Shown here piece by piece: positions 20,403-22,502 of a DNA stretch of 26,024 bases. Every line of letters begins with the position of its first letter. Positions within the stretch are counted from its first letter, which is position 1. This stretch comes from Methanocella sp. GTDB taxonomy: Archaea > Thermoproteota > Bathyarchaeia > Bathyarchaeales > Bathycorpusculaceae. Below the pieces are notes generated by a model, which did no database searches, had not been told where the DNA came from, and worked only from the letters and a program-made list of their open reading frames with translations. The translations under genes were made by a program, and so were the position numbers. The stretch lies in NCBI GenBank assembly GCA_050261115.1, contig JBLNCY010000013.1:1-26024 (forward strand). Direction: 5' to 3'.

Positions 20403-21059
20403 TTAAGCCTCATACATAGTCGGGTCAGTTATGCCTGCTTCTTGGAAGGCTTTCTTTCGGTTCACGCATGATTCGCACCTGCCACAATGCTTTTTTGCAT
20501 CTCGATAGCACGACCAAGTGAGCTCAAGGGGCACGCCAAGTTTTTCTGCCTCTCTTAGCAGTTCAGATTTCCTGTAGCCGTTGAATGGAGCCCTAATCGT
20601 AATGTCCTGATCTGTGCCTAGTCGAGCTGCTTTCTCAAAAGCCTCATAGAATTCTCTTCGGCAATCCGGATAGTTGGGCTCATCAGAACCATGCGCACCA
20701 TAAAAGATCTCTCTTGCGCCAACTGCAGAGGCATAGGCGACGGCAACGGAGAGGAAGATGGCGTTTCGGAAGGGTACAATTATTGGGTTGCTAAATTCAG
20801 AGGTTAGGGGTATGTCGGTGTTGCATAGAGCGGTGACACTGCCGAATACTGCTTTGAGTTCCGAGAGGTCAACGATTTTGGTGGTGGTGCCGAGTTTTGC
20901 TGCGATTTGTTGTCCTATCTCGGTTTCTTTAACGGCGATTTGGCCATAGTTGAAGGTTATGGGGTAGATTTGGTAGCCTTGTTGCTTGGCCCAGTAGGCA
21001 ACCGTTGCAGAGTCAGGGCCGCCACTTAGGACAACGACGCATTTTTTGTTTTTGTTCAT
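20403..21059 (-). CDS. queC: 7-cyano-7-deazaguanine (preQ0) synthase
   Basis: Start reassigned to ATG 21059 (MNKNKKCVVVLSGGPDS), overlapping the queT stop (ATGA). Motifs FNYGQ, VPFRNAIFL, YPDCR and Zn site TWSCY...HCGRCESC. Confidence 0.95.
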   Translation of the reverse strand: MNKNKKCVVVLSGGPDSATVAYWAKQQGYQIYPITFNYGQIAVKETEIGQQIAAKLGTTTKIVDLSELKAVFGSVTALCNTDIPLTSEFSNPIIVPFRNAIFLSVAVAYASAVGAREIFYGAHGSDEPNYPDCRREFYEAFEKAARLGTDQDITIRAPFNGYRKSELLREAEKLGVPLELTWSCYRDAKKHCGRCESCVNRKKAFQEAGITDPTMYEA

Positions 21060-21565
21060 CTTTTTTCTACCTCTGTGCCGAGCCATCTTTGGACGCCTGT
21101 TTTCTTGAGTAACTTGAATAGTGGCCACCCGATTAGCACGCTTGCAATAAAGTTGCCGATGAATACATAGACTATGGTTGCCAGAAGCGGCAGTGATAGT
21201 ATGAATGATAGCATGTACCCGACGGTTATGCCTAAGATGGCTGAGTAGGCAGTGCAGGTTCCGATTACTGTGTAATCGTTTCGGGTCTTCCTATAAACGT
21301 AGAAGACTACCAGTGCCATGGCAAACGAGGGCACGGTATTTAGTAAATCAATGGGGCCTAGTGGTGATGGGATGTTGCCAATAAATACGCCTAAGGTATG
21401 TCCCAGCACTCCTGCTATGCCAAGCAATGGTATAGCTGCAACCATGCAATCTGCTATTCGCAGTTGGATGGCTCCAAAACTTAATCCTGGAATTACATTA
21501 ACAAGTACCGCATATAAGGCGGCGTATGCTGCTATTAGGGCTACTTCTTTGGTTTGTAGTTTCAA
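21056..21565 (-). CDS. queT: QueT-family (COG4708) queuosine/archaeosine precursor transporter
   Basis: 169 aa, about 5 TM. AALYAVL...SFGAIQLRIAD, GVFIGN..SPLGPID. TTG start with GGGAGG SD. Directly upstream of queC. Confidence 0.88.
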   Translation of the reverse strand: MKLQTKEVALIAAYAALYAVLVNVIPGLSFGAIQLRIADCMVAAIPLLGIAGVLGHTLGVFIGNIPSPLGPIDLLNTVPSFAMALVVFYVYRKTRNDYTVIGTCTAYSAILGITVGYMLSFILSLPLLATIVYVFIGNFIASVLIGWPLFKLLKKTGVQRWLGTEVEKR

Positions 21566-21641
21566 GTGTACTTTGCCTCCCTACTCCCGGGGTTTATAGT
21601 GTGGCGGAACGGGTGGGAAGCACCTCTCACCCGCCAACAAC
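21566..21641 (-). ncRNA. Candidate cis-regulatory leader RNA (putative preQ0/preQ1-type riboswitch)
   Basis: Leader GUUGUUGGCGGGUGAGAGGUGCUUCCCACCCGUUCCGCCACACUAUAAACCCCGGGAGUAGGGAGGCAAAGUACAC-UUG. Contains competing helices, an A-rich linker and an 8-bp anti-SD/SD pairing. Confidence 0.55.
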
Positions 21642-21663
21642 GGAGAGAAATATCTGACTTGCC

Positions 21664-21676
21664 TAAAAAGTTTTAG
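21664..21676 (-). promoter_or_regulatory. BRE/TATA-like promoter of queT-queC
   Basis: Minus strand CTAAAAC-TTTTTA (TATA at 21669-21664) predicts a TSS near 21640, at the 5' edge of the structured leader. Confidence 0.6.
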
Positions 21677-21704
21677 CAGCAACAATAAGAATCTCTGGGG
21701 TTCC

Positions 21705-22502
21705 CTAGTGGGCGGCGGGTTTTTGTGCCTGCTTCCATAGTGTCTCGTAATAGGCCATGATTACCCTAACAAACGCTGGATTATCTGACCAAAGCGACGG
21801 CGTCAGGTCATTATCCTGCTGTGTTCGCACACGCAAGTTAGCTACCTTACCATCGTATACTGCTGCCCCCATCGGGACAGTTTTATCGAGGTATCGGATC
21901 TCAAATAGATCACCGCTCTGTTTGCTGAGTTCCTTGTGTTTTTTATCTACTGCGGTGGGTTTTTCGGTTATAATCCGAACCTTTACGCCTCTTGCCCTCA
22001 ACTTGTCGTATGACTCTAAGGTAAAAAGAAGGAACCTTACAGTGCTCCAGTCACTGATGATGTCAAGGCTTTTAGTTGTGCTTGCGTCTGCGGCGGAGAA
22101 TCTCTCTAAGAGGAGTTCTTTTGAGTTTATTATTGAGAAGCCCTCAGTTTCTATTTGACTTGCCTGCTTGGGAGTTTTCTTCTGGAATTCCTCAACTAAC
22201 TCTTTAGCTTTCAATTTGGCTTCTGTGTATTCCTCTTTTTTCCGTTGAAGCAGCAGTGCACATCCGTCTTTTAGTGCGGTGGCTTCATACATGGTGGGTG
22301 TGCTGATAATCTTCTTTAGGAGACCCAATTTTTCTAGCGCTGGCACGATACGGTAGACGTCGGTTCGGGCTACCTCAGACTTTTCAGCAATTCTTCCAAC
22401 AGACGCCTTTTGCAGTGTAACTGCTGTCAGGTAAATCTTTGCTTGGAGAGGGGTTAATCCAAGTTTTTCTAGTGTTTTGACCTGTAACTCAACGTCTTCC
22501 AT
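21705..22502 (-). CDS. TrmB-family transcriptional regulator
   Basis: N-terminal wHTH (LEKLGLTPLQAKIY...VARTDVYRIVPALEKLGL), a coiled segment, and a PLD-like effector domain (RGVKVRIIT, AVYDGK, SLWSDNP, YYETLW). Confidence 0.88.
   Translation of the reverse strand: MEDVELQVKTLEKLGLTPLQAKIYLTAVTLQKASVGRIAEKSEVARTDVYRIVPALEKLGLLKKIISTPTMYEATALKDGCALLLQRKKEEYTEAKLKAKELVEEFQKKTPKQASQIETEGFSIINSKELLLERFSAADASTTKSLDIISDWSTVRFLLFTLESYDKLRARGVKVRIITEKPTAVDKKHKELSKQSGDLFEIRYLDKTVPMGAAVYDGKVANLRVRTQQDNDLTPSLWSDNPAFVRVIMAYYETLWKQAQKPAAH

Follow-up and report, generated by a model that had tools for sequence, protein, structure and literature searches.

The question raised by this locus is whether the RNA leader in front of two 7-deazaguanine genes of an archaeon senses a metabolite. 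The window, that is, the whole stretch of 26,024 nucleotides (nt) analysed here (contig JBLNCY010000013.1, assembly GCA_050261115.1, class Bathyarchaeia), carries the genes queT and queC on its minus strand, with a leader of about 75 nt (21640–21566) 5′ of queT. A first reading, made from the letters without database searches (the sequence-only reading), had proposed that this leader is a 7-deazaguanine riboswitch that turns translation off, possibly tuned to pre-queuosine-0 (preQ0). Upon comparing the leader with its counterparts in other genomes, we consider it likely, short of certain, that it is a riboswitch with an H-type pseudoknot fold, structurally a new class, which turns translation off and most likely responds to preQ0. 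Its elements, including the Shine-Dalgarno sequence (SD) and a box resembling the B recognition element (BRE), are as follows.

21664..21669, minus strand: TATA-like TTTTTA, with an A-rich BRE-like CTAAAA just 5′, recognised from the sequence
21631..21636, minus strand: 5′ strand of helix P1, UGGCGG, pairing with 21602–21607
21602..21607, minus strand: 3′ strand of P1, CCGCCA, supported by covariation
21623..21630, minus strand: loop L1, a near-invariant GUGAG (21630–21626) and a variable AGG
21610..21622, minus strand: 5′ strand of helix P2, UGCUUCCCACCCG, the anti-SD strand, pairing with 21574–21589
21608..21609, minus strand: loop L2, UU (U21609, U21608), between P2 and the 3′ strand of P1
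21590..21601, minus strand: loop L3, the A-rich linker CACUAUAAACCC, whose 3′ end is formed by conserved unpaired C residues
21574..21589, minus strand: 3′ strand of P2, CGGG-AG-U-A-GGGAGGCA, with bulges A21585, G21584 and A21582
21581–21576, minus strand: SD GGGAGG, entirely within P2
21635–21628 with 21615–21608, minus strand: helix A, GGCGGGUG with CACCCGUU, 8 bp including two G-U
21636–21631 with 21607–21602, minus strand: helix B (identical to P1), UGGCGG with CCGCCA
21622–21615 with 21581–21574, minus strand: loop–SD pairing (identical to P2b), UGCUUCCC with GGGAGGCA

All the elements that had been read by eye are present at these positions, and the CUAUAAA linker and the complementarity of UUCCG to CGGGA were confirmed in the window sequence as well. 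P2 is made up of P2a (G21610-C21589 through C21613-G21586), and of P2b (C21615-G21581 through U21622-A21574); between them lie the bulged A21585 and G21584, the pair A21614-U21583 and the bulged A21582. P1 and P2 cross, and the arrangement is therefore that of an H-type pseudoknot. When folded as a single sequence, the window's leader is unremarkable: its minimum free energy (MFE) is −25.9 kcal/mol, compared with −26 ± 3.4 kcal/mol for dinucleotide shuffles (z 0.03), and 92 out of 200 shuffles are as stable or more. Hence, the case for a structure beyond chance rests on comparison, that is, on conservation and covariation across about 100 genomes.

Of 61 related genomes searched, 52 yielded a QueT homologue. 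A common 5′ core precedes the gene at 24 loci of the same genus, where QueT is 55–71% identical to that of the window, and at two loci of the same order (about 40%). This shared core reads UUGGCGG-GUGAG-N(3-9)-YUCCYACCCG-UU-CCGCC-AA..AUAAAAC-CCGGG-(AG)-UAGGGAGG-start. It is near-invariant across 27 orthologous loci, at which the QueT proteins are just 39–71% identical to the window's, and the MAFFT alignment of these 27 leaders contains 22 invariant and 20 nearly invariant columns. When one genome per prokaryote species was scanned for the exact pattern, at least 120 matches were returned; among the matches listed, 99 carry the GUGAG and SD features, and 21, found in GC-rich bacterial DNA and lacking both GUGAG and an SD, were discarded as chance. 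Nearly all of the 99 come from records titled Bathyarchaeota/Bathyarchaeia, Bathycorpusculum, Methanomethylicus, Methanosuratincola, unclassified Thermoproteota, "Nitrososphaerota" or archaeon metagenome-assembled genomes (MAGs).

In the 99 sequences, G10, U11 and G12 are invariant and A13 and G14 are conserved in at least 90%. L2 is UU in 88 of 89 sequences and AU in the remaining one. The core of L3, AUAAA(A/C)C, is invariant or nearly so, its P1-adjacent part varying in length, and the linker from P1 to the SD strand is unpaired, A-rich and 10–19 nt long. L1 measures 8–12 nt, and P2 11–13 bp with bulges. The unpaired and invariant GUG, UU and AAAAC-CC are located at the P1/P2 junction. Conservation of orthologous leaders, on which the sequence-only reading had made its proposal depend, is strong (27 loci, 99 sequences).

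Covariation was assessed in three alignments: A1 (MAFFT, the 27 leaders), A2 (unfitted MAFFT, 99 sequences) and A4, in which 89 diverse sequences were aligned to a covariance model, R1, that encodes P2 only, A4 being hence unfitted to P1. In A1, 94.6% of cells are paired and changes on both sides occur in 6 of 18 pairs (14 cells); none of 500 shuffles reaches the observed values on four of five measures, and slid controls give 40–66%. The corresponding figures in A2 are 91.5% of cells paired and both-side changes in 13 of 20 pairs (110 cells), with the covariation score reached by none of 500 shuffles and slid controls pairing 41–63% of cells. A4 likewise has 91.5% of cells paired, both-side changes affecting 14 of 20 pairs (126 cells); here 0/500 shuffles reach the observed values on all five measures, and slid controls give 40–61%.

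The two helices that make up the pseudoknot had both been proposed from the single sequence, and both show covariation in A1, A2 and A4. P1, which had been described as helix B, changes on both sides in four of its seven pairs in A4: the closing pair is G-C or C-G, the outer core pair G-C, A-U or C-G, and the two flanking pairs U-A or A-U. P2b, the pairing of the loop with the SD, changes on both sides in nine of nine pairs in the same alignment, and in P2a the pair beside the bulge turns from C-G to U-A in 10 sequences. Depending on the lineage, the SD-side strand is GGGAG, GGAGG, GGGGGG, GUGG or CGGAA, the loop changing to match; despite these differences in sequence, the 3′ strand of P2 always spans the SD or the start region. 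P2b is further supported by an alignment-free duplex test, in which the loop pairs with its own tail with a mean of −11.8 kcal/mol, compared with −9.9 ± 0.2 kcal/mol for permuted tails (0 of 2000 permutations as low). Own and permuted pairings differ only in mean energy in this test, the own tail being the best or tied-best partner of the loop in just 1 of 89 sequences, with a median of 9 foreign tails binding better.

A third pairing that had been pointed out, UUCCG with CGGGA, was not retained: 93.6% of its cells pair, but compensatory changes are nil and one pair is broken in 8 sequences. Covariation backs instead the pairing of CCCG (21613–21610) with CGGG (21589–21586). G-U pairs represent 86 of 1712 paired cells; since a DNA inverted repeat, or the opposite strand, could contain them only as mismatches, they point to constraint on the RNA of this strand. 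Judging from the sequence comparison, the conserved and covarying leader pseudoknot is real and more than chance.

We also determined how the motif is distributed. Model R1 finds a single copy in the window's genome (82.6 bits); a second match there, on contig C17 (15.9 bits, E 0.73), is noise. Across the phylum, 151 genomes were sampled, and the motif was detected in 28 of them. Within the window's class six families are positive (12 of 19 sampled genomes), and outside it four more: f21 (9 of 15), f33 (3 of 3), f37 (2 of 2) and f41 (1). R1 did not find it in f15 (0/19), f19 (0/13) or f24 (0/13). According to the record titles, the hosts range from digesters to hot springs. Two contigs, one carrying the motif with queT-queC (L081) and one carrying a second leader considered further below (L189), belong to MAGs titled Acidoferrum and Chloroflexia, and are likely mis-binned archaeal contigs.

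The association with genes of the pathway is close. All 26 R1 matches in other genomes of the phylum precede queT, and in 122 of 124 distinct motif instances queT, queC or queE lies downstream. queT is directly 3′ of the motif in 118 of the 124 (91 as queT-queC); three others (L075, L076 and L129) have a short open reading frame (ORF), then queC and then queT or a QueE-like gene, and in another one (L032) a QueE-like radical S-adenosylmethionine (SAM) gene follows, which among NCBIfam models scores highest with four for QueE (about 90 bits, under their cut-offs). The remaining instances are one at a contig end and one chance match in Nocardia. The short ORF between motif and queC at L075 (5454–5573), L076 and L129 is hydrophobic and about 40 codons long; it may be a remnant of the queT 5′ end or a leader peptide.

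The sequence-only reading had also judged, by eye, that the leader matches none of the known classes exactly, and the Rfam search agrees. No Rfam 15 model, those of preQ1-I, preQ1-II and preQ1-III included, matches the window at gathering score, and none matches at E ≤ 10 when 351 bases or 96 bases are searched. The few matches obtained upon searching the window, eight related loci and the second leader with Rfam 15 (snoRNA-like, CRISPR direct repeat, and a viral pseudoknot at 13 bits) are noise.

The spacing of the TATA-like box fits a predicted transcript start shortly before the motif. The TATA-like hexamer ends 25–32 nt before the P1 core in 79 of 116 instances, with a mode of 28 nt (47 instances), and 28 nt is also the spacing in the window. 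With a TATA box so positioned, archaeal promoter spacing would place the start a few nt 5′ of P1, and transcription is predicted to start near 21640. The stretch between TATA box and P1 is not conserved among the orthologous leaders, where only the TATA box at fixed spacing is kept upstream of P1. A conserved block of about 45 nt (GGAAGWWGCAT..ATGTAATC...TTAATATTTCGCC) was observed about 100–150 nt 5′ of the motif at seven loci (L006, L008, L010, L011, L017, L023 and L025). It is absent from the window; at the orthologous loci that have it, it is placed 5′ of the promoter, and it may represent the end of an adjacent gene or an RNA encoded on the opposite strand. In four metatranscriptome runs, contigs reach parts of queC, queT and the leader, with low depth; they hold no strand or start information, and gaps in their coverage are uninformative.

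The genes that surround the leader in the window are the following.

22502–21705, minus strand: TrmB-like gene
21056..21565, minus strand: queT, 169 aa (PF06177, 78.8 bits), TTG start
21563..21565, minus strand: TTG start codon of queT, 10 nt 3′ of the SD
20403..21059, minus strand: queC (PF06508, 214 bits; TIGR00364, 192 bits, exceeding its cut-off)

These scores bear out the naming of both genes downstream of the leader as queT and queC. The spacer from the TrmB-like gene to queT is 139 nt, and downstream of queC, on the same strand, lies a serine hydroxymethyltransferase gene. The tblastn alignment to orthologues starts at the queT TTG. The queT stop TGA (21058–21056) and the probable queC ATG (21059–21057) overlap as ATGA (21059–21056), which suggests that translation of queC is coupled to that of queT; by virtue of this overlap, control exerted at the queT leader could extend to queC. 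A GAGGU is found nine nt 5′ of the probable queC ATG. A longer, GTG-initiated queC ORF (from 21128), in which the Pfam match begins only at residue 29, is probably not used.

The genome, which is 94.85% complete, contains an archaeosine-type tRNA-guanine transglycosylase (281.6 bits), QueC and QueT; QueD, QueE and QueF were not found in it. This combination suggests salvage of a precursor, and the likeliest scheme is one in which a QueC substrate such as 7-carboxy-7-deazaguanine (CDG) would be taken up through QueT, the product preQ0 going to tRNA. The QueE candidates in the genome were rejected, being generic radical-SAM cores of at most 29 bits; the best of them is NrdG beside NrdD, an arrangement seen on contig C19 (L153, 69–2115), where an NrdD-like ORF is followed by the radical-SAM activase. 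Across the genus, QueD could be found in only 15 of 61 genomes; among the 38 of high quality, 12 have it, and in the other 26 none was found. The substrates of QueT are untested even in bacteria, according to the pages consulted of an earlier study (PMC5372724).

How might such a leader work? The model that we favour is the following. P1 (GGCGG/CCGCC, extended by U-A pairs) would close a loop whose 3′ half (YUCCYACCCG) pairs with CGGG and the SD region to give the long P2, while the A-rich L3 would run along P1. GUG from the 5′ end of L1, UU of L2 and CC from the 3′ end of L3 would converge at the P1/P2 junction, and a 7-deazaguanine would be bound there. Archaea insert preQ0 into tRNA as the end product from which archaeosine is made; preQ0 would most likely be the ligand, CDG or preQ1 being possible. 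Ligand binding would lock P2 and hide the ribosome-binding site, turning queT off, and queC would follow through the ATGA overlap. In the absence of ligand, the GUGAG(UGG) segment would hold the anti-SD strand, in helix A or in an inner hairpin, and the SD would be free. We place the putative pocket at the junction by analogy, because the ligand of preQ1-I stacks between P1 and P2 (PMC11625349, in the sections consulted). A conserved and covarying structure in the 5′ untranslated region, attached to the genes of one pathway and provided with an expression platform, is what generally marks a riboswitch, and all of these were found here.

The sequence-only reading had described helices A and B as mutually exclusive. 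Helix B stands as P1. Helix A pairs in 97.7% of cells, but compensatory changes are nil, the changes seen being one-sided and wobble-compatible only, and it is broken in the 6 sequences in which P1 swaps G-C for C-G; it is thus retained solely as a possible ligand-free fold. An alternative partner of L1 is CCAC(CC) in the 5′ strand of P2, the result being either helix A or an inner hairpin, GUGG/CCAC, that is compatible with P1. This inner hairpin pairs in 90.5% of cells, compared with 86–93% in slid controls. On average, P1 (−9.1 kcal/mol) and helix A (−9.2 kcal/mol) match each other in stability, and folding of the 5′ part forms P1 in 86 of 89 sequences. P1 looks constant, and the anti-SD strand plausibly alternates between two partners, the GUGAG(UGG) segment and the SD strand.

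Several observations weigh against a ligand-controlled OFF switch of this kind. The related origin of the sequences means that cell counts overstate the number of independent events, and the window's own fold has no excess stability over shuffles (z 0.03). Covariation is equally compatible with P1 and P2 existing together or in turn, and a P2 as long as 11–13 bp might form in the absence of ligand. Neither of the two candidate ligand-free folds, helix A and the inner hairpin, shows covariation. It is the gene context alone that designates the ligand, and UU stands in L2 where the specificity cytosine of preQ1-I would be expected. Finally, a contig from metatranscriptome run X14 (21423–21756, depth 5.6) extends from the 5′ end of queT through the leader and across the predicted promoter into the TrmB-like gene, of which it covers the final 50 nt; either transcription runs on from this upstream gene, or the RNA library contained DNA.

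Other explanations were weighed. If the aptamer consisted of P1, an internal loop (GUGA / CCGUU) and the inner stem (GUGG/CCAC), the leader would be an ON switch: a salvaged precursor such as CDG would keep the anti-SD strand off the SD, importer and QueC would be substrate-induced, and P2 would be the default OFF state. In nested folding, 86 of the 89 sequences indeed have P1 plus the inner hairpin as the MFE structure of their 5′ part; 90.5% of the inner-stem cells are paired, and the genome apparently depends on salvage, no QueD or QueE having been found. We nevertheless think an ON switch unlikely: covariation in the inner stem is not clear, slid controls pairing just as well (86–93%), and the near-invariant A-rich L3, the CC before P2 and the P2a covariation beside the P1 junction would be left unexplained. 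Moreover, bacterial queT-linked riboswitches sequester the SD when ligand-bound, according to the sections consulted of a recent review (PMC11625349). Somewhat less improbable, yet still not what we expect, is that the partner of the pseudoknot is not a small molecule but a protein, for instance one that binds RNA and regulates itself, or another RNA such as a tRNA. Covariation and gene association show a functional RNA and not its binder, and few riboswitch classes are documented in archaea: thiamine pyrophosphate (TPP), fluoride, and rare flavin mononucleotide (FMN), Mg-I and guanidine-II, as far as the consulted parts of a census tell (PMC5473149). What speaks for a small molecule is the size of the element and its invariant junction nucleotides, like those of small-molecule pseudoknot aptamers; besides, no partner gene is conserved, the upstream neighbours varying between loci and the TrmB-like gene not being syntenic, and no tandem G-A pairs resembling a kink-turn were seen by eye.

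The leader could also function independently of any ligand, as a constitutive damper of translation, a stabiliser of the mRNA or an RNA thermometer in which the SD helix melts. The long P2 being the MFE fold of the window's leader, and a host range from digesters to hot springs, would suit this explanation; a thermometer or damper requires pairing of the SD only, however, and P1 and the invariant unpaired GUG, UU and AAAAC-CC would have no role, nor would the exclusive link to 7-deazaguanine genes across distant Bathyarchaeia and Methanomethylicia be accounted for. We therefore regard it as quite improbable. It is barely conceivable that a transcription factor uses the inverted repeats, just 3′ of the promoter, as its operator on the DNA: GGCGG/CCGCC and CCCGGG are palindromic in DNA and come directly after the TATA box, but the 86 G-U cells and the asymmetric, bulged helices with compensatory changes fit RNA and not DNA symmetry, and P2 spans 25–60 nt and extends to the SD. 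There remains the relationship to preQ1-I, of which the leader might be a strongly derived member that kept the knot and the A-rich L3 while L1 and P2 expanded over the whole SD. The common topology (P1 of about 5 bp, A-rich L3, 3′ tail pairing to the loop) favours such a descent, as does a shorter leader of a queT paralogue in the same genus, which has preQ1-I-like features by eye. It is an unlikely origin all the same, given that no Rfam model matches at E ≤ 10 even on 96 bases, that UU replaces the specificity cytosine in 88 of 89 sequences, that an L1 of 8–12 nt and a P2 of 11–13 bp contrast with the few nt and bp of preQ1-I, and that the shorter leader is unrecognised by Rfam too.

Returning to the preferred explanation, a preQ0-responsive OFF switch, we asked what it would add to current knowledge. 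The leader lies outside every Rfam 15 family and is thus probably a new riboswitch class for a 7-deazaguanine precursor of tRNA modification. We found no report in the literature of an archaeal preQ1, preQ0 or queT riboswitch, the supplementary tables of riboswitch censuses, which might list stray archaeal matches, lying outside this search; nor did we find any riboswitch report for Bathyarchaeia or Methanomethylicia. In the consulted parts of the 2017 census only TPP and fluoride riboswitches are common in archaea, FMN, Mg-I and guanidine-II being few (PMC5473149), and in the sections consulted of the 2024 preQ1 review every phylum named, whether for class II or for types I and III of class I, is bacterial (PMC11625349). 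A more far-reaching statement, for which we see about an even chance, is that the leader adds a fourth to the structural classes of 7-deazaguanine riboswitch, as the first from Archaea, and is tuned not to preQ1 but to preQ0 (or salvaged CDG), with a pocket of GUG, UU and CC replacing the preQ1-I cytosine, and that it controls an operon of QueT importer and QueC salvage across Bathyarchaeia and Methanomethylicia. If true, metabolite-sensing RNA would extend to uncultured, globally abundant archaea, and a new small pseudoknot fold for recognition of a purine-like ligand would be at hand. It would also provide a first handle on how archaea control their supply of 7-deazaguanine, and would suggest that QueT-QueC serves to salvage CDG or preQ0.

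Compared with known systems, the leader is closest in outline to preQ1-I (RF00522; types I–III). Both are H-type pseudoknots with a P1 of about 5 bp closed by G-C and an A-rich L3 after the 3′ strand of P1; in both, SD bases belong to a 3′ tail that folds back to pair with the loop, and the genes downstream, transporters among them, concern queuosine precursors (PMC11625349 and PMC5372724, in the parts consulted). The same sections of the former describe for preQ1-I a UC or AC motif with a strictly conserved specificity cytosine immediately 5′ of the 3′ strand of P1. At that place the archaeal leader has the UU of L2, and the base that follows it pairs in P1 and covaries as G-C/C-G. Further differences from preQ1-I are the GUGAG in L1 and the bulges of a P2 that buries the whole SD, and the hosts, which are archaeal here, whereas those sections name none but bacterial phyla for types I and III of class I (PMC11625349).

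With preQ1-II (the COG4708/queT motif, RF01054) the leader shares its position ahead of queT, the (here predicted) control of translation and the pairing of the complete SD in the pseudoknot beside the presumed pocket. preQ1-II, however, is an HLout knot with helices P1–P4, of which P4 is an inserted hairpin, and occurs in Bacillota only, as described in the sections consulted (PMC11625349); the archaeal leader has no hairpin between the linker and the SD strand, and no Rfam match. preQ1-III (RF02680) is likewise a pseudoknotted preQ1 sensor that controls translation. In its larger HLout fold the SD helix lies more than 40 Å from the pocket (PMC11625349, same sections), unlike the SD strand of the archaeal leader, which is within the core knot, as part of P2; a match to the Rfam model is lacking here as well. 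The leader is thus akin to the translational pseudoknot switches of the preQ1 type and is a member of none of their three families.

A second leader, of about 45 nt, was observed 5′ of a QueT paralogue in 14 Bathyarchaeia species (L028 type; positions about 1455–1503 in L028–L030 and about 553–603 in L187–L200). Its sequence, GGUAG-UUUCCGUAUAUAAC-CUACC-UUAAAAAACC-CGG, overlaps the SD; 36 columns are invariant among the 14 species, and one compensatory change, in P1 (L197), was seen by eye, so that the structure is putative only. It shares with the main motif the genus and gene family, a 5-bp P1, an A-rich linker and an ...AAAACC-CGG tail overlapping the SD, and differs from it in a 3-bp P2, an 8-nt L2 ending in AAC, and the lack of GUGAG and of the anti-SD extension. 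Set by eye against preQ1-I, it has UUU after the 5′ strand of P1, AAC before the 3′ strand of P1, and a AAAAAACC-CGG tail. Orthologues of one QueT paralogue carry the second leader in L187–L200 and the main motif in the more distant L201–L203. This fits two interchangeable RNA solutions for one signal, and recalls the situation in bacteria, where several preQ1 classes serve the same genes.

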